From positions 28,377 through 92,376 of the IMG/VR virus record IMGVR_UViG_3300045988_137643: DNA of 64,000 nucleotides; one strand, given 5' to 3'. How positions within the stretch are numbered: position 1 is the stretch's first letter; each line of letters begins with the position of its first letter. Under the pieces are notes generated by a model. That model was not told the DNA's origin. It saw only the letters and a list, made by a program, of their open reading frames with translations, and searched no databases. Positions 3,451-27,701 of the stretch are shown in pieces. The position numbers and the translations under genes were made by a program. Origin of the DNA: a virus. Lineage: Duplodnaviria > Heunggongvirae > Uroviricota > Caudoviricetes.

Positions 3451-4028
3451 TTCATGTGCAGCTTGGCGGCCCTATGGCCAAACATTTTGGCCGCCACTGG
3501 CATCTAAAGGTGCGCAATACAAAACAGGCTCTGGATTTAATTGAGGCCAACAAGCCGGGGTTTAAAGCATGGATGAAGCGCAATATCAAAACCTATGACA
3601 GATACCACATCCAGATCACCAATAAACAGGGCCACAAGTGGTCTGTGGACGAGAGTGAATATCAGATGATGGGGCAGTCTGACAACATTGCCAAAATCCG
3701 CATTACCCCTGTTCCGCGAGGAAGTGGCGGATCTGCTTTTGGATGGTTTCAGACGGTTGTTGGAGCAGTGTTAATGGTTGCCTCGATATGGGTGCCCGCT
3801 CTTGCGCCTCTCGGTTTGTCACTGATGATGGGTGGTATAGCGCAAATCATATCTCCGCAAGCCACTAACGAAAGTGTGAGGCAGGCGGATAACTCGAACT
3901 CTTATTACTTCGATGGACCTCAAAACACAACAAACCAGGGGAACCCTGTACAGCTTATCTATGGTGAGGAAATTTTAGTTGGCTCACAGGTCGTGAGTTC
4001 TTCTATCACCATCGACCAGCTTATGTAA
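3438..4028 (+). CDS. Tail assembly protein I-like
   Basis: Position between K and J; hydrophobic C-terminal segment; GTG start with AGGGAG RBS. Confidence 0.45.
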   Translation: MSELVHVQLGGPMAKHFGRHWHLKVRNTKQALDLIEANKPGFKAWMKRNIKTYDRYHIQITNKQGHKWSVDESEYQMMGQSDNIAKIRITPVPRGSGGSAFGWFQTVVGAVLMVASIWVPALAPLGLSLMMGGIAQIISPQATNESVRQADNSNSYYFDGPQNTTNQGNPVQLIYGEEILVGSQVVSSSITIDQLM

Positions 4029-4045
4029 TCAAGGATTTTTTGGAC

Positions 4046-7000
4046 ATGGAACAGTTCAAGAAGAAAAAATTACCGCTTCTTATTGCCGGTGCTGGTGGCA
4101 AGAAAAGTAAAAGCTCCAGCCGTACTCCGGTTGAAGCTGATGATACTGTCAATTCTCGTGCTATGGCAGCCATCCTCGACCTTCTTGGCGAGGGGGTTAT
4201 CGGTGGCCTGGTAAATGGCGCAAAGTCGATCTTCATCGACGATTTACCGATCTTGAATGAAGATGGCTCTTCCAACTTCAGCGGTATTACATGGGATTTT
4301 CGTGACGGCTCACAAGACCAGACGCCAATGGCTGGTTTTGATTTTGTCGAAACGCCTAAGTCCGTAAATATTCAGCTTAAAAAAACACACGACGTTACGG
4401 TTTCAATCGATAACGATGAAGCTGATCGCGTTCGTGTCATCATGAAATTCCCATCTTTACGTAGCGTTGATAAAAGCTCTGGCGATACAAATGGCACTAC
4501 GGTGAAGTACAAATTCCAGATCGCCAACGGAGACGCAACATTTTCTGATGTAGTGGCAGAAGGTGAGAAAAGCGTTGATATCACGCTAACGGCAAAGAAA
4601 ACCGGCGTGTATTACCGTAGCTATGAGCTGAAACTGCCTAAGCCTGGTCGTGCATACAAGGTTAGGGTGATTCGTCTTACAGATGATAACAGTAGCCAGT
4701 ACCTCTACAACGACACATGGGTTGATTCCATCGGTGAGATTGTCGACACGCCAATGAACTACCCTAACTCAGCTCTTGTTGGCTTGAAGGTCAATTCAGA
4801 GCAGTTTGGTAGCACAATGCCTTCCCGTTCGTATTTGGTGCGCGGTATCAAAATCCGAGTACCGTCAAACTACAACGAATACACCAATACTTATGTCGGC
4901 GTATGGGACGGTACTTTTAAGCTGTTGTCTTCTTCAAACCCTGCGTGGATTCTCTACGATTTGCTTACCAATACTCGGTATGGTCTTGGGCAATTTGTGT
5001 CGGAATCCATGATTGACCTCGGCCAGCTCTACCAGATTGGTCGATATTGTGACGAAGAGGTCGATGATGGCTTTGGGGGTAAAGAGAAACGCTTTGCAAT
5101 CAATACGCAGATCACCAGTCGACAAGACGCATACCGATTAATTCAGGATATTGCCGGTGCATTCCGCGGCATGGTGTTTTGGGCTGGTGGCATGGTTAAC
5201 ATCATGCAGGATAGCCCATCAGATCCGGTAATGATGTTTACCAACTCCAACGTCAAAGATGGACTATTTACCTATAAAGGTTCTGCGCGTAAAGATCGCC
5301 CATCCGTTGCGCTCGTAACCTACAACAACAAGGAGGACGGTTATAAGCAAAACATCGAGTACGTTGAAGATCAGGACGCAATGCGCCGTTATGGTGAGCG
5401 TAAAACAGAAGTCGTAGCATTTGGATGTACAAGCCGAGGCCAGGCTCACCGAGTTGGTTTGTGGCTTTTGTATACCGCCAGAATGGAGTCGGATGTAATT
5501 ACATTTACTGCCGGCTTAGACGCCTCATTTCTGATGCCCGGTGAAACCGTTCTGATTCAGAACAAATATCGTGCAGGTAAACGTAACTCCGGTCGAATTG
5601 TGGAGTTTACCAAAAACAGCATCACTCTCGATGCGCCTGTGTCGTTAGCTAAAAGCGGCAGCTTTATTCGGATATTGAATCAGGAAGGCAAAATCGTTGA
5701 ACGCGATGTTCTTGAAACTGGCGAAAACATAACAAAGGTTACGTTTTCAAAAGCTCTGTCGTCAGCGGAAACGCCTGTTTTGAACGGTGTCTGGACAATT
5801 ACAGAACCAGATCTCGAACCTATGCGCGTTCGCATCGTTAACATCGCGCAGGGGGAAACGCCGGGTAGCTTTGACATCACCGCTGTTGAGAACAATCCGT
5901 CTAAATATGAGGCAATCGACAATGGTGCAACGCTTATCCCGCAGAATACGACGGTATTGGACCCGACTTACTCTAAGCCATCTAATTTGCAAATCACTGA
6001 AGGGACTTACCTCTCAAGCCCGGGAAACCTGTCAGTAAAACTGACTGCAACATGGGAAGGGAAATCTCCAGAGTATTGGATCAGTTGGCGACGTTCTGAT
6101 GAAAACAATGTATCGAACTGGCAATCGGCGCGTGTAACCGAAGAGCAATACGAAATCGTTAATGTAGCGGAGAATGGACGCTACGACTTCCAACTGTATG
6201 CGGTTTCATTCAACGGTAAAAAAACAGAAATTATCAGTACCGTTTATCAGGTGCTGGGAACAATGACACCGCCGGATGCACCAACGTCATTAACGGCCGT
6301 TGGAGACTATCGTAATGTGATACTGAATTGGGTTAATCCAGATTCGGTAGACCTTGATCACATTAATGTTTACGCATCCCAGACCAACAATCTGGATACG
6401 GCGAAACTGATCGCAGAGTCTGCAAGCACCACCTTTACACATGCTGGTCTTGGGGATAGCGAAACGTGGTATTACTGGGTTCGAGCATCGAACAAGCGAG
6501 GTATGTTAAGCCCTCCGAACTCAAACTTGGGTACAGAGGCGACAACTCGCGATGTACTGTCGTTCCTGGCTGGCAAAATTACATCTTCCGAGCTTGGTCA
6601 GGCTCTGCTTGAGGACATCAACAGCAAAGCCTCTCAAGAAGCAGTTGACGAGTTAAATGAGCATATCAACCAGAGCGTCGAATCTTTGGAGGGGTCGGTA
6701 AACGACGTTAAGGAAGATATAGCTGAATTAGATAAGCAGTTCAGCGATAACCTCGCGGATTTTGAAATAAAATTCAACGAGCGTAGCGATGCTTTGGAGA
6801 ACGCACAAACCGAACTTAAAGGTGAGGTTTCGGCAACGATCGACAAGGTCAATGAAGCGTTTGAAAAAATTGATGCTACTGATGCTGCAATTGTTGAAAT
6901 CGAAAACACCGTATCTGAACACGATAAAGCTCTCGCTAATACAGTCGAGGCAATAAAGGCTGCAAGAGATGAAGCAGCAGCTCTTATTGCTAAGGAAAGC

Positions 7001-24845: not shown

Positions 24846-25623
24846 AAACACAATAATAAGTATTTACTTACTTATTTTTTATGTATAAGATGACTTTGTT
24901 TTCGTTGAGACGCGACTGTTTGAACTTAAATACAAGTGCAAACGAAGAAGTCTATCTGGCAGTAGCCTAATAAGCCAAACACCAGCGAGGTCAGTTTCCA
25001 GCCTCGTTACCGAAATGGGACACACTGAGCGAGTGTGATTACAGAACGCAGGAGGGAACATTCATGTTCCCTCCGATGAAGTAACAGAATGGGCGGTTGG
25101 TATATTTTCAACTCCATATGACTCCCGGATTCTTAGCCACTGACCGTCCATCCTGTTACGTCATTTTGTTCAATTATGTCGTTTATACTGGGTTAAAAAG
25201 CGGCGACGTAGCCCGGCTGGTATGGTTAGCCAGCACACAACGTTGAGGCCATTACATTTTTATCAATTCTAAGGTTCTATCCACAGAAAAACCGGCGAAC
25301 GTTGATATGTAACATGTTGGGCAAACATTCAATCGGAGTAGTGGCCTCAACGTTGTGAAGACAGGATAGTTGTGTAGGTTTAACCACTGTTGCCATTGGT
25401 GCCTGTTTTCACAACAAATGATTCCATACATCACATTGTATAAATTACAAAGTAGGTGCTGTCCTCAGAAACATCATCTACTTAAAGAGTTTGCCTTCTA
25501 CTATTGAGCGAAGTCGAAAGCGTCTGGCACTAACGAAAAGTGCAAGTAGCGGTGCGTTTCCTGGCAGAAACTAAACCGTCGCGATTGGCACTGTTGAGTA
25601 ATAAATACTGGCAGTGCCGAATT

Positions 25624-25698
25624 GATGGTGTAGCTCAGCGGTAGAGCAGTTGGCTGTTAACCAACTGGTCGGTGGTTCGAATCCACCCACCATCGCCA
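25624..25698 (+). tRNA. tRNA-Asn (anticodon GTT)
   Basis: Cloverleaf read by hand: 7-bp acceptor gatggtg/caccatc, D-arm GCTC...GAGC, anticodon loop ctGTTaa, T-arm GGTGG-TTCGAAT-CCACC, encoded CCA. Confidence 0.8.
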
Positions 25699-25703
25699 AT
25701 TTA

Positions 25704-25790
25704 GGGGAGTTAGTCCGTAGGGGTAGCGGGGTAGACTGTAAATCTACTGTCATTGCGACTCGGGTGGTTCGACTCCATCACTCCCCACCA
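25704..25790 (+). tRNA. tRNA-Tyr (anticodon GTA), long variable arm
   Basis: Acceptor ggggagt/actcccc, anticodon stem GTAGA/TCTAC with loop cuGUAaa, T-loop TTCGACT, encoded CCA. Confidence 0.7.
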
Positions 25791-25794
25791 AATT

Positions 25795-25870
25795 GCCGGT
25801 TTAGCTCAGTTGGTAGAGCAGTCGCTTTGTAAGCGAATGGCCAGCGGTTCAAGTCCGTTAACCGGCACCA
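25795..25870 (+). tRNA. tRNA-Thr (anticodon TGT)
   Basis: Acceptor gccggtt/aaccggc, D-arm GCTCAGTTGGTAGAGC, anticodon loop ttTGTaa, T-loop TTCAAGT, encoded CCA. Confidence 0.7.
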
Positions 25871-26538
25871 ACATAATATTGAGAACATTGGCGTAACGGG
25901 GTCATATCCCAATCTATGAATAAATGTCGCGTTGCAGCGTGACAACCAGTGTTCTCAACATTGTGGTGAATGCACAGGCTGATGTGCCGCAACTACAGTA
26001 GTGCGCGCTTTGCGGGGCTTGCTACAACCCTGTGTCGGAGTTCAGCACCGACCATCACAATTTGGCTCTCTTGCAACAGCATAACGCTGAAATATGTCCA
26101 ACCTGGTGCGGCCTGTTCACCCGCCGTTAGCTCCACGAAACGGAGCGCACAACAGATAAGAGAACTTCCCATATGGGGCTTGGCTTAAATGCATCGAGTT
26201 CTCTTATCGCTGTGTCACAGACAAATTTCCGACAGCCCTGTTTATCATCGGACGCAACCTAAAAGGTCGAGGCAAAGCCAGGTAATAGCGGAGGGAGTGA
26301 CACAGCACACAACAGGTAAGAGCATTTGTAGAGTTCGACTCTCTACCGTGGGCTTTTTCCCGCGATGCGAGCCATAAATGCTCTTTCCGTTGTGGTGGAT
26401 TCGCAGACTGATGCGATAGCTTTCTTGGATGTTAGGGAAATGCGGCCGCAAATCTTCCCTTTCGCGAGCGGTGATCGTCCGTAGTCCTAATTGGCTGCAC
26501 CGTATGCCGGAGATTCAGTACCGGCCACCACAACGGCC

Positions 26539-26625
26539 GGAGAGTAGGGAGCATGGTGCTCAAGCGGTCTTGAAAACCGTCCCATTGTGCAAACGATGAT
26601 GGTTCGATTCCATTACTCTCCGCCA
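26539..26625 (+). tRNA. tRNA-Ser (anticodon TGA) candidate with atypical D-arm
   Basis: Acceptor ggagagt/actctcc, anticodon loop cuUGAaa, long variable arm, T-loop TTCGATT, CCA; D-loop unusually short so may be degenerate. Confidence 0.5.
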
Positions 26626-26804
26626 GACACAGCGTTGAGCGGTTTGGCCTTTTAATCACCCAGATTAAGACTCCGCTAACATAAACCAGACCGCTCAACG
26701 CTGTGATAGACAATTACGGCAGACGTTCTTAACCATAGCTTGCTAACATCCTAGCAACACTTTTTACAGCGCAAAATTCAAAGGGGCTTCGGCCCCTTTT
26801 TTGG

Positions 26805-27701
26805 TTACTGATTATCTAGGTATGCTATTAACTCATTTTTAATGATCAGTGAATATTCTAAAATCTCACCTAGTAAATACTCTGCTTTTTTAAAATGCCA
26901 CCCCATATAGCCTAATTTTTCTGAAGGTTTTTCTAACAACATTATAATATCGCCGTCTTTCTCTTTGGCAATGTATTGTCTTATTTCTATCTCCCCATTA
27001 TTTCTTGCCTTTCCACTTATTGATGATTCATCCAAAACTTTAGTTATAAACTTTTCCGTGTCGGTGAACTTTCCTGCATTATGCACAATTGTATGTCTTA
27101 GCAATTCAATTAGAGTGATCTCTAAACGATAGTTTTTACCCATCTTGTTATTTATTTCTACGTCTCTGAAATTGGGTAATTTTCTTCTAAATACTTTCAG
27201 GATTTTTTTTGGTGCTTTATTATTTCTTTTTATCGCATTGTAGTAGGTTTCCATGTCTCCATTTTGTTCGATCTGAACATTTTTAAATTCACTAGTTGAC
27301 CAAAAATGGTCATGAATACTCACTGTATGGGCATATATTTTCTTAATATAGTCTTCAAACAATTCATATGCTTCGGTTATAACCCATTGATACTGTTTAT
27401 TTTTTAACACCTCACATAATTTTATCTTCTCTGAGAGATCTGTTCTAGTATACCCAATTCCAAATGTTGAACCTGTATATGGATTTGAGCATGTATAGTT
27501 TGCTAACGTTGTCCCGCATGTTATTGGGGAAGTATTATTAGCATCTAGAGTTTGTACGTTTTCAAGTGTATGCTTAAATCGCTTTATGTTGTCTTTCGTT
27601 GTAACATTTATATGACCTAACAAGTCACAACGTAATATTATTTCATTTCTTAAATCAGTGAATATTTTTTCGACAAAAGAACCTGGTGGGTTTTCAATCA
27701 T
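26805..27701 (-). CDS. AT-rich accessory gene: HEPN-motif protein, candidate abortive-infection/RNase effector
   Basis: 298 aa; Rx4H motif (LLRHTIVHN) at about 27078-27110; markedly lower GC than flanking sequence; only minus-strand gene in its neighbourhood. Confidence 0.4.
   Translation of the reverse strand: MIENPPGSFVEKIFTDLRNEIILRCDLLGHINVTTKDNIKRFKHTLENVQTLDANNTSPITCGTTLANYTCSNPYTGSTFGIGYTRTDLSEKIKLCEVLKNKQYQWVITEAYELFEDYIKKIYAHTVSIHDHFWSTSEFKNVQIEQNGDMETYYNAIKRNNKAPKKILKVFRRKLPNFRDVEINNKMGKNYRLEITLIELLRHTIVHNAGKFTDTEKFITKVLDESSISGKARNNGEIEIRQYIAKEKDGDIIMLLEKPSEKLGYMGWHFKKAEYLLGEILEYSLIIKNELIAYLDNQ

Follow-up and report, generated by a model that had tools for sequence, protein, structure and literature searches.

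An array of four tRNA genes in an SSU5-type phage-plasmid: a candidate operon for tRNA supply and for countering tRNA-cutting defences

Phages can counter some tRNA-cutting defences with tRNAs of their own. The targets of AriB (PARIS) include tRNA-Asn(GUU) as well as tRNA-Thr(UGU); a tRNA-Lys/Thr/Asn set from phage T5 inhibits this system, and bypass requires a resistant tRNA-Lys (PMC12409363). The AriB site is U36AAUC|A41, and the changes U39A and A41C give resistance. The targets of P2-OLD also include Thr(UGU) and Asn(GUU), and in a study with a library of 245 tRNAs, rescue was obtained with the phage tRNA-Thr(UGU) variants tRNA-Thr6 and tRNA-Thr21; resistance requires an altered CNG motif plus a shortened stem, both together (PMC12445682). 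Thr(UGU) is among the targets of HepS as well. tRNA-Tyr(GUA) is a target of Retron-Eco7 and of Septu PtuAB (PMC11555353, PMC12673091, PMC13096335). The tRNA-Tyr of SP15, a T5-like phage, no longer inhibits Retron-Eco7 once its variable loop is swapped for that of the host, which is 5 nt shorter (PMC12673091), and according to Azam et al., the protection that the tRNA-Tyr of T5 or SP15 gives against Retron-Eco7 (PtuAB) depends on promoter strength. Finally, the HNH nuclease of the FORC82 retron targets all tRNA-Ser (PMC12475279), and the tRNA-Ser(GCU) of T5 is still cut by this retron.

There are also precedents for the form and the setting of the tRNAs that we describe below. In the (8/4) tRNA-Ser or allo-tRNA class, the 12-bp acceptor branch is split 8/4 (Mukai et al. 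2017, PMC5389517). The GenBank record of T5 states that tRNA-Ser1(UGA) and tRNA-Tyr, which are homologues of the tRNA-Ser and tRNA-Tyr that we studied, are efficient suppressors after a change of anticodon. In P1, the annotation (NC_005856) places the genes trnA-trnT-trnI in the ban operon, which C1 represses.

The stretch of DNA that we analysed (hereafter, the window) is 64 kb long and belongs to an SSU5-type phage-plasmid of E. coli, so the preliminary description was right to assume a phage. ARAGORN finds four tRNA genes in the window and no others, all on the + strand: tRNA-Asn(GUU) at 25624-25698, a T5-type tRNA-Tyr(GUA) at 25704-25790, tRNA-Thr(UGU) at 25795-25870, and an (8/4)-type tRNA-Ser(UGA) at 26539-26625. 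This confirms the set that had been proposed. As the criterion for a canonical elongator tRNA, we took a score that reaches the gathering threshold of the Rfam covariance model RF00005, which is 29 bits; the scores are 75.5 bits for Asn, 69.0 for Thr, and 41.9 for Tyr, and Ser is below the threshold. All four tRNAs have an encoded CCA end, their discriminators are those of their E. coli counterparts (G73 in Asn, A73 in Tyr, A73 in Thr, and G73 in Ser), and they look chargeable by the host's synthetases. They are just 60-72% identical to the host's isoacceptors, which rules out that they are identical copies of host tRNAs; such copies, if not expressed, would have counted against the original proposal. 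Because of this low identity, we also rejected the idea that they are remnants of attP sites. Nor do we give much credence to the idea that they are non-functional hitchhikers, i.e., tRNA pseudogenes or recombination scars that are carried along with the module. The content of the array does vary among relatives, and tRNA-Ser fails the general tRNA model, as might be expected of relics. But the other three are far over the Rfam threshold, the CCA ends and discriminators are kept in all four, and tRNA-Ser has compensatory changes, both in its V arm (U-A in the window versus C-G in 21 other loci of the lineage) and across 40 homologues. We consider this reading to be disfavoured already, and very improbable.

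The array lies directly downstream of a replication module (helicase, primase, and ligase) and on the same strand; the ligase is an ATP-dependent DNA ligase. A simple scan of the + strand gave no sigma-70 promoter immediately upstream of the array. If the array is expressed, then its transcript likely ends at 26780-26805 (+ strand), where the sequence predicts a strong intrinsic terminator (AAAGGGGCUUCGGCCCCUUU, then a U-run). Searches of the neighbouring ORFs with PADLOC, Pfam, PHROGs, and NCBIfam gave no defence, anti-defence, or tRNA-repair function. Across 34 related loci, the repertoire is combinatorial: the first slot holds either Asn or Arg-UCU, Tyr is present or absent, there are two main alleles of Thr, and cassettes with Arg-UCU or Ile-CAU replace or join the array's tRNAs. 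tRNA-Lys is missing from the window and also from the rest (49.5 kb) of the closest complete relative. Parts of the module match over 1,000 plasmid records in PLSDB.

Codon usage accounts for some of the set, and does so just as well as counter-defence. We defined codon demand as the ratio of usage in the window to usage in the host and ranked it among 40, with a sample of just 52 genes from K-12 as the host reference. Relative to this sample, enrichment is 1.9-fold for the codon UCU and 1.6-fold for both UCA and ACA, and the demand for Ser-UGA and Thr-UGU is 1.64 and 1.58 times that of the host (ranks 3 and 4 of 40). For Asn and Tyr, the ratio is 1.12 (ranks 13 and 12 of 40). K-12 has one gene each for Ser-UGA and Thr-UGU, four for Asn, and three for Tyr. 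By demand, the four tRNAs have a mean rank of 8.0 of 40 (p about 0.011); if demand is divided by the number of host gene copies, the mean rank is 15.8, which is not exceptional (p = 0.21). The preliminary description had allowed that codon usage might fully account for the set; it accounts well for Ser and Thr but not for Asn and Tyr.

Could the array be purely a matter of supply, with the differences from the host being neutral divergence from a phage tRNA lineage? The high ranks and the single-copy host genes of Ser-UGA and Thr-UGU fit, as does the mean rank of the set, and the cassettes of the relatives also carry tRNAs for rare codons (Arg-UCU, rank 1, and Ile-CAU, rank 7). Nevertheless, we think that this is possible but unlikely. 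Besides the low ratio for Asn and Tyr and their multiple gene copies in the host, Lys-UUU (rank 2) and the strongly enriched codons AAG, GAG, and CGA have no tRNA on the element, and demand per host gene copy is unexceptional, all of this as judged against a reference of 52 genes. Also, supply leaves unexplained two features that we describe below: the concentration of differences in the anticodon stem of Thr and the T5-type variable loop of Tyr.

The preliminary description suggested that the tRNAs may counter tRNA-targeting defences of the host, on the grounds that Asn and Tyr belong to the queuosine family, which anticodon nucleases are known to target. That rationale fails. Alignment to the host's isoacceptors shows that Asn, Tyr, and Ser have the same anticodon loops as their host counterparts and that the loop of Thr differs only by C32U, so there is no sign of escape from a nuclease that reads the loop. 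The suggestion itself fares better: the tRNAs are known targets, and Thr, Asn, and Tyr are altered at mapped determinants, although codon usage remains as an explanation. The four substrates of colicin E5 include Asn(GUU) and Tyr(GUA), so escape from nucleases of this type, which read queuosine-family anticodons, might seem attractive. However, both loops (CUGUUAA in Asn and CUGUAAA in Tyr) match those of the host exactly, and an enzyme that reads the loop should therefore cut the window's copies too. Furthermore, His and Asp tRNAs are absent from the array, and colicins come from competing bacteria and are not triggered by phage infection. We consider this hypothesis (discussed in PMC10264068) to be far-fetched for the array.

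The substitutions at mapped determinants are in Thr, Asn, and Tyr; Ser differs from the host in its D arm. The anticodon arm of Thr is GUCGC-UUUGUAA-GCGAA; G27 and A43 are mismatched, neither 28-30 nor 40-42 reads CNG, and the arm has U32, G39, and G41. Relative to the host's thrU, it has UAAGC|G instead of UAAUC|A, UCG/CGA instead of CUG/CAG, and G27.A43 instead of A27-U43. It combines both of the published features of resistance to P2-OLD (the paired CNG motifs are lost and 27:43 is mismatched), and neither U39 nor A41 of the AriB site is present. G39 is common to every phage tRNA-Thr that we examined. If we compare the Thr alleles of two SSU5-type elements, they differ at 6 of 10 positions in the anticodon stem and at 6 of 66 other positions (Fisher p = 0.00065), and their acceptor and D arms are identical. 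The Thr allele of P1 and Cyrano retains CNG/CNG and a full stem. For Asn, the anticodon arm is GUUGG-CUGUUAA-CCAAC. It has UAACC|A instead of the UAAUC|C of the host's asnT, with C in place of U39 of the AriB motif, and positions 28-30/40-42 are UUG/CAA instead of CGG/CCG, so both CNG motifs are gone. The P1-family allele of Asn retains a perfect AriB motif. Tyr is 80.9% identical to the tRNA-Tyr of T5, with identical variable and T arms. Its variable loop (GUCAUUGCGACUCG) is 14 nt long, versus 9 nt in the host, and the sole change from the host in its anticodon stem is C28U/G42A.

Our best explanation of the locus as a whole is that it is an operon for both counter-defence and supply, and we put the probability of this at roughly 55%. 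It would be an accessory tRNA operon, built from a pool of tRNA cassettes that is common to P1-family, N4-like, and T5-like phages, and during lytic growth its tRNAs would add to or replace the host's isoacceptors. The two benefits to the element would come from different members. Thr and Ser would serve supply: they would read ACA and UCA, codons that are about 1.6 times as frequent in the element as in the K-12 sample and for which the host's tRNA genes are single-copy. Thr, Asn, and Tyr would serve counter-defence. Thr should resist P2-OLD because of the loss of the paired CNG motifs and the shortened anticodon stem, and AriB because U39 and A41 are absent. Asn would be a variant, without U39 and both CNG motifs, of a host tRNA that the nucleases destroy. 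Tyr would act against the PtuAB of Retron-Eco7 by means of its T5-type long variable loop, which is needed for neutralisation.

There are several reasons for caution about counter-defence. Host tRNAs with the same anticodons are destroyed by nucleases from the same species, but this is a weak sign because so many tRNAs are now known to be targets. There is a look-elsewhere effect: between them, the systems that we consider attack Lys, Thr, Asn, Tyr, Ser, Ile, His, Pro, Val, and further tRNAs, so nearly every possible set of four would include some known target. Differences from the host in the anticodon stem are found in any diverged tRNA. The relatives, judging by their alleles, are not uniform in the putative escape features (i.e., the P1-family Asn and the P1/Cyrano Thr). 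And given that there is no tRNA-Lys, the set cannot defeat PARIS alone.

tRNA-Ser scores 46.8 bits with RF01852, the tRNA-Sec model, which is near the gathering score of 47 (E = 1e-7). It folds with an acceptor stem of 8 bp, a T stem of 4 bp, a D stem of 5 bp whose loop has 3 nt, and a V arm made up of a 5-bp stem and a GCAA loop; the gene encodes G73-CCA. We do not consider it to be a tRNA-Sec, which would have the anticodon UCA and a 13-bp (8/5) acceptor branch: it has a UGA anticodon (which reads UCA serine codons), a 4-bp T stem, and a score below gathering. Its anticodon arm retains the host's CGG/CCG. We examined covariation across 40 distinct viral homologues, including tRNA-Ser1 of T5, and compared it to 2,000 shuffles. 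N8:N66, which is A8-U66 in the window and forms the eighth acceptor pair, is paired in all 40 (AU in 32, GC in 6, UG in 1, and UA in 1), and 0 of 2,000 shuffles reach that. N49:N66, the alternative pair of a 7/5 fold, forms in 34 of 40, which is below the shuffle mean of 36.1. Six homologues fit only the 8/4 fold and none fit only the 7/5 fold. Pairs 2-4 of the D stem show 4-6 pair types (0 of 2,000 shuffles), the loop has 3-4 nt in every homologue, and two linker bases covary in Watson-Crick fashion with the first two bases of the variable region in 35-36 of the 40. The discriminator is G in 26 homologues, as in the window, and U in 14; for this class, G73 or U73 and a long V arm are the identity elements that SerRS recognises. 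The atypical D arm that had been noticed at the outset is real, then, but the suggestion that it might reflect decay is not borne out: the 5-bp stem with its 3-nt loop, which is conserved with covariation just as the eighth acceptor pair is, is the hallmark of the published (8/4) tRNA-Ser class (PMC5389517), and by its fold and covariation the window's tRNA-Ser is a member of that class. This places the tRNA-Ser of coliphages (T5, P1/P7/D6, and SSU5-type) in a non-canonical class, which is why tRNA finders handle them poorly (as noted in the D6 record).

The spacers appear to be structured as well. All of the following are on the + strand. Upstream of tRNA-Asn, leader modules at 25232-25415 include the hairpin E0, whose arms are at 25236-25255 and 25338-25357, along with another closed stem (25352-25415). 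E1, at 25869-25968, is a long spacer hairpin of what we call the E-type family. It is followed by module A and then segment X1 (25957-26150), which are about 92% identical to a region of P1 where the counterpart is annotated as plp/upl on the opposite strand. Module A has a terminal helix (GUUGUGGUG/CAUCACAA) and the hairpins GCAC-AGGCUGAU-GUGC and GUCGG-AGUUCAGCA-CCGAC. Next come the E-type hairpin E2 (26146-26220); module B (26209-26306), with a closing helix of 10 bp (GCUGUGUCAC/GUGACACAGC); the E-type hairpin E3 (26306-26398), with an inner T-arm-like hairpin (GUAGAG-UUCGACU-CUCUAC); and module C (26387-26538), a paralogue of A that has a perfect closing helix of 12 bp (CCGUUGUGGUGG/CCACCACAACGG) and ends directly at tRNA-Ser. 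E4 (26626-26709), another E-type hairpin, lies directly 3' of tRNA-Ser and has 20-nt arms that are 95% complementary. We scanned for E-type hairpins by duplex energy, as a rigid ungapped scan missed the window's own copies. The hairpin RNAs in the spacers covary when paralogues are compared; orthologous copies are 94-100% identical and show no covariation.

With permissive E-values, no Rfam family matched the spacer modules in the window, P1, P7, D6, Ro157c2, or Cyrano, and DicF was absent from the same six in a permissive Rfam search. Weak Rfam matches to Y-RNA (YrlA) and tmRNA merely overlap the true tRNAs. Homology to the stable RNAs of T5 was rejected because short-word blastn gave only chance matches of 7-11 nt. 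We also considered whether E4 might be a decoy for AriB, as it contains a 10-mer (CUUUUAAUCA) that is identical to positions 32-41 of tRNA-Lys, but this is probably a chance match: about 0.12 such matches per window would arise at random, and in the predicted fold the 10-mer is part of a stem.

The neighbour that is convergent to the array, on the - strand at 26805-27701, is an AT-rich ORF (31% GC) of 298 aa. Its Rx4H motif is invariant and its predicted fold is HEPN-like. HEPN RNases are defined by a four-helix fold with a conserved Rx4-6H motif, and this is a probable HEPN-fold gene. Foldseek against PDB and profile searches against Pfam and PDB gave no matches for this ORF, and a single-sequence AlphaFold model was unusable (pLDDT 30). 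One could imagine self-immunity, in which the ORF encodes the element's own tRNA-directed HEPN RNase (for exclusion or abortive infection) and the array supplies tRNAs that are insensitive to it, so that the element's lytic cycle can proceed in spite of the enzyme. We would be quite surprised if this were so.

A broader reading, which we offer tentatively and think rather improbable, is that the locus is an array of hairpin-bounded cassettes that is traded between unrelated families of phage-plasmids, namely P1-like myoviruses and SSU5-like siphoviruses, so that counter-defence tRNAs and structured RNAs are shuffled together. There would then be two uncatalogued families of structured RNA, one of E-type hairpins and one of A/C/Y modules (100-150 nt), and they might serve as boundaries for processing or recombination, or else might act as decoys for nucleases that attack tRNAs. 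The variable slot next to the array, which holds the probable HEPN RNase here, would belong to the same conflict hotspot.

If our preferred explanation, counter-defence along with supply, is correct, then temperate phage-plasmids carry a small and swappable toolkit against tRNA-cutting immunity (OLD, PARIS, Retron-Eco7, and Septu). To date, such counter-defence has been shown mainly for T5 and other virulent phages of large size. In E. coli and Klebsiella, elements of the SSU5 and P1 types are common, and phage-plasmids also bear resistance genes. The two Thr alleles of one element family, which differ almost only in the anticodon stem, are predicted to be unequal in their sensitivity to P2-OLD. 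These alleles and the presence or absence of Tyr are natural experiments, and they yield predictions as to which defences limit the spread of phage-plasmids.

How does the array compare to the known systems? As in the T5 set that inhibits PARIS, Thr(UGU) and Asn(GUU) have substitutions at the 40|41 cleavage site or beside it, and G39 of the window's Thr is also found in the tRNA-Thr of T5. Unlike that set, the array lacks tRNA-Lys(UUU), and because this tRNA is required (PMC12409363), the window's set would be insufficient against the PARIS of E. coli B185. Like tRNA-Thr6 and tRNA-Thr21, the window's Thr has a UGU anticodon with A37, an altered CNG pseudo-palindrome, and a 27:43 pair that is lost through A43. 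It carries UCG/CGA where Thr6 has CUC, and 21 of its 76 positions depart from thrU, as compared to 12 for Thr6. Tyr shares the anticodon and the long variable loop with the tRNA-Tyr of T5 and SP15 and differs in the acceptor, the D arm, and the anticodon stem; also, it is carried by a temperate phage-plasmid, whereas theirs are in a promoter-rich tRNA region of a virulent phage. tRNA-Ser and the (8/4) class of PMC5389517 share a long D stem that is Sec-like and has a loop of 3-4 nt, a long V arm, G73, a serine anticodon, a tRNA-Sec score close to the threshold, and a presence in phages. The coliphage branch that we see (T5, P1/P7/D6, and SSU5-type) is absent from the parts of that paper's text that we draw on.

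The spacer modules are like the tRNA-like stable RNAs of T5 (RNA1, RNA2, RNA3, RNAI, RNAIII, and RNAIV) in being structured RNAs of about 70-170 nt that lie among tRNA genes on the same strand; with no detectable sequence similarity, this is an analogy only. P1 lacks Tyr and Ser and has tciABC and tRNA-Ile2, and its Asn and Thr alleles keep the AriB and CNG motifs, unlike the window's. Our element is siphovirus-like, of the SSU5 type, with no C1 operator identified. Both arrays lie beside a replicative-helicase module, and both begin with homologous Asn and Thr genes and continue into the E1/A/X1 spacer segment at about 92% identity.

The window belongs to an SSU5-type phage-plasmid of E. coli. 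Positions 14000-38000 match Escherichia phage CMS-2020a (90% coverage, 95.7% identity), Cyrano, and PhiR41_1, as well as Salmonella phage SSU5 (at 80.7%), and the E. coli plasmid p009_B, the closest complete relative, shares 98.9% identity over the tRNA region. The preliminary description had reported a set of four tRNAs, and its coordinates were exact: in its 64 kb, ARAGORN calls four genes for tRNAs, each of them on the + strand, namely tRNA-Asn(GUU) at 25624-25698, tRNA-Tyr(GUA) at 25704-25790, tRNA-Thr(UGU) at 25795-25870, and tRNA-Ser(UGA) at 26539-26625. The first three score 75.5, 41.9, and 69.0 bits, respectively, with Rfam's tRNA model (threshold of 29 bits). The tRNA-Ser is below that threshold and scores 46.8 bits with the selenocysteine-tRNA model, just under the threshold of 47. 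All four genes encode the CCA end, and each has the same discriminator base as its counterpart in E. coli. They are not host copies or remnants of an attachment site, because they are just 60-72% identical to the isoacceptors of E. coli K-12 (Asn, 63%; Tyr, 66%; Thr, 72% to thrU; Ser, 60% to serT). A same-strand replication module (DnaB-like helicase, primase, and ATP-dependent DNA ligase) precedes the array, and a strong intrinsic terminator at 26780-26805 closes it. The array is a real and probably functional accessory tRNA operon.

P1, P7, D6, and Ro157c2YLVW carry parts of the tRNA module at 92-95% identity. The module is mosaic with the P1 family, which is itself unrelated to the window's element; in P1, the homologous Asn and Thr genes sit within the C1-repressed operon of the helicase ban. 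We also noticed that p009_B contains full-length metG (methionine--tRNA ligase) and apbC outside of the window (L131 31459-34750), and these look like chromosomal genes that were captured by a phage-plasmid. Upstream of the array, the unannotated segment 24886-24992 has about 76% identity to sequences in over 300 phages, from the Felixounavirus and Suspvirus groups and Klebsiella siphoviruses. In phage SUSP1, its counterpart lies inside a tRNA array, on the same strand, between tRNA-Ile and tRNA-Arg. The predicted fold of this segment is unexceptional (z = -0.9).

The 668-nt spacer between the Thr and Ser genes folds far better than shuffled sequences (z = -4.9 for the tRNA-sense strand and -2.4 for the antisense). 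It is a chain of stem-closed modules, and the subset of modules varies from phage to phage. Five E-type hairpins (E0-E4, at 25232-25361, 25869-25968, 26146-26220, 26306-26398, and 26626-26709) flank and separate the tRNAs, and there are more in P1, P7, D6, Ro157c2, and viral contigs. The outer parts of the hairpins are conserved in sequence (as ACAAC(A)GG-UAAGRG or ACAACG-UUGAG). The inner stems diverge, yet five of their positions are paired in every one of the 14 members, and up to five types of pair occur there; for 12 of these members, the tRNA-sense strand gives the more stable duplex. E-type hairpins have no match in Rfam, and we found none in 65 kb of the K-12 chromosome or in the tRNA region of T5. 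Two larger modules of 100-150 nt, A (25957-26066) and C (26387-26538), have a paralogue in P1 (Y, at about 3870-4020 of L002). These three share a terminal helix (GUUGUGGUG / CACCACAAC), a 5' hairpin whose loop, AGRCUGAU, is conserved, and a 3' hairpin whose loop is AG(A)UUCAG; by inspection, a few compensatory changes occur among them. They are superficially tRNA-like but lack a CCA end, and they match neither the tRNA covariance model nor any Rfam family. T5 has annotated tRNA-like stable RNAs, but these are analogous to the spacer modules rather than homologous.

Window positions 25855-26162 correspond to 3757-4326 of the P1 locus (L002), where plp, which overlaps trnT at its end, and upl are annotated as coding sequences on the opposite strand. 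The window's own frames on the reverse strand are fragmented (44-59 codons each) and its sense strand is highly structured. These coding sequences of P1 may be spurious. Also, sub-threshold matches to the sRNA family STnc100 (RF02076; 33-43 bits, gathering score of 47) occur in P1-family loci, not in the window (L002 4365-4484, L003 3448-3568, L005 3459-3578, and L006 2948-3063). In P1, D6, and P7, they lie just upstream of tciA or a homologue of it; in Ro157c2YLVW, the site is equivalent. Finally, hairpin E4 contains, at 26649-26658, a 10-mer (CUUUUAAUCA) that equals positions 32-41 of E. coli tRNA-Lys(UUU), including the cleavage motif of the defence nuclease AriB. The 10-mer is kept in p009_B, where the neighbouring loop varies. 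The expected number of such 10-mers is about 0.12 per window, and this one lies in a stem of the predicted fold; it is probably due to chance.

The preliminary description was right that the D arm of the tRNA-Ser is unusual, but its suggestion of decay does not hold up. The window's gene is 72% identical to tRNA-Ser1(UGA) of T5 and has the same architecture; according to the T5 record, that tRNA turns into an efficient suppressor if its anticodon is changed. A scan of a viral collection, with the D arm's 3' side and the anticodon loop as its only anchors, yielded 119 loci, with 107 ARAGORN calls of tRNA-Ser(UGA) and 55 distinct sequences. Forty of the sequences, the window's among them, have a linker of two bases. 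In these, an eighth acceptor pair (N8:N66) forms in all 40, with four pair types, which none of 2,000 shuffles reached. The rival fifth T-stem pair forms in 34, fewer than the average of 36.1 in shuffles. The 8/4 model alone accommodates six of the sequences, and no sequence is accommodated by 7/5 alone. Covariation is strong in the 5-bp D stem, which encloses a loop of 3-4 nt; the linker's two bases pair with bases one and two of the variable region in 35-36 of the 40, as compared to 2 for the canonical 10:25 pair; and within the window's lineage, the stem of the variable arm has a compensatory U-A/C-G change. These features define the (8/4) tRNA-Ser or allo-tRNA class, which is already known from bacteria and their phages (Mukai et al., PMC5389517), so the atypical D arm is a hallmark of the class rather than a sign of decay.

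A second group, of 12 viral tRNA-Ser(UGA) sequences, shares the long D stem and the 3-4-nt D loop, but its linker is a single base (L015, L021, L033, L038, L044, L061, L062, L066, L112, L114, L119, and others). These have a 7/5 acceptor branch (N8:N66 paired in 0/12, N49:N66 in 12/12), so the Sec-like D arm is separable from the 8/4 branch.

Why would the element carry these tRNAs? They might top up the supply for codons that it over-uses. We compared 53 ORFs from the window to 52 ORFs from K-12, called by the same procedure. AGA is the most over-used codon (2.2x), and UCU (1.9x), UCA (1.6x), and ACA (1.6x) are also enriched. If we rank 40 host tRNA species by the ratio of window to host demand, Ser-UGA is 3rd and Thr-UGU is 4th, and tRNAs from the cassettes of relatives also rank high (Arg-UCU 1st, Ile-CAU 7th). 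The mean rank of the four tRNAs is 8.0 (p about 0.011). However, Tyr and Asn have ratios of just 1.12 (ranks 12 and 13), and K-12 has three and four gene copies of these tRNAs, respectively. By demand per host gene copy, the mean rank is 15.8 (p = 0.21). Codon supply therefore explains Ser and Thr well, and at least as well as counter-defence does, but it explains Asn and Tyr poorly, so codon usage does not fully account for the set.

The tRNA repertoire of 34 related viral loci is combinatorial: 15 have Asn-Tyr-Thr-Ser, 8 have Asn-Thr-Ser-Met/Ile2, and 3 each have Arg(UCU)-Tyr-Thr-Ser-Met, Arg-Thr-Ser-Met, or Asn-Thr-Ser. In six viral contigs (L013, L019, L029, L083, L090, and L100), the first slot is occupied by tRNA-Arg(UCU) instead of Asn. 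There are two main alleles of the Thr anticodon arm in these loci, and the window's type always occurs together with Tyr. Between the Thr genes of two SSU5-type elements, 6 of 10 anticodon-stem positions differ, versus 6 of the 66 other positions (Fisher p = 0.00065); there are no differences in the acceptor and D arms. This is the pattern expected from diversifying pressure on the anticodon stem, but it is suggestive and not proof, because anticodon stems are intrinsically less constrained.

The idea that phage tRNAs counter tRNA-targeting defences is already known, and because so many tRNAs are known targets of nucleases, a match by the four anticodons is, taken alone, weak evidence. The preliminary description had invoked anticodon nucleases that target queuosine-family tRNAs. 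Escape from loop-reading nucleases of this kind (e.g., colicin E5) is unsupported: the loops of Asn, Tyr, and Ser are the host's, and Thr alone differs (C32U). Nevertheless, three members of the array (Thr, Asn, and Tyr) carry published determinants of nuclease escape. In E. coli tRNA-Tyr, the variable loop is cut by Retron-Eco7 and Septu PtuAB (PMC12673091, PMC13096335, PMC11555353). The T5-like phage SP15 has a tRNA-Tyr that is left uncut, and protection is lost if its longer variable loop is replaced with the host's (PMC12673091). The window's tRNA-Tyr is 80.9% identical to T5's, with identical variable and T arms; its anticodon stem differs from the host's only by C28U/G42A. As for Ser, E. 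coli FORC82 has a type I-A retron that depletes each of the four species of tRNA-Ser (PMC12475279), and the window's anticodon stem retains the host-like CGG/CCG.

AriB, the effector of PARIS, cleaves the Lys(UUU) and Thr(UGU) tRNAs of E. coli, and Asn(GUU) less efficiently, between 40 and 41 in U36-A-A-U39-C40↓A41; the resistance of T5's tRNA-Lys maps to U39A and A41C (PMC12409363). Inhibition of PARIS requires the Lys, Thr, and Asn tRNAs of T5 jointly (PMC12409363). Since tRNA-Lys is absent from the window and from the remaining 49.5 kb of p009_B, the published result implies that the element alone could not defeat the B185 PARIS system. The preferred target of P2-OLD is thrU, whose paired CNG pseudo-palindrome it severs after C28 and C40; cells are rescued from P2-OLD by tRNA-Thr(UGU) genes of phages (PMC12445682). 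Resistance requires two changes together: the CNG motif must be altered and the anticodon stem shortened, as with U43A (PMC12445682).

The array offers unusually clean natural contrasts between alleles for experiments. For Asn, host asnT has UAAUC↓C and CGG/CCG, whereas the window has UAACC↓A and UUG/CAA, and the P1-family allele retains a perfect AriB motif. For Thr, the P1/Cyrano-type allele retains CNG/CNG and a full stem. Host thrU has UAAUC↓A, CUG/CAG, and A27-U43, whereas the window's gene has UAAGC↓G, UCG/CGA, and G27.A43. Thus, the window's tRNA-Thr has both features of resistance to P2-OLD (the altered CNG and G27.A43) and lacks both of the positions mapped for AriB (it has G at 39 and G at 41).
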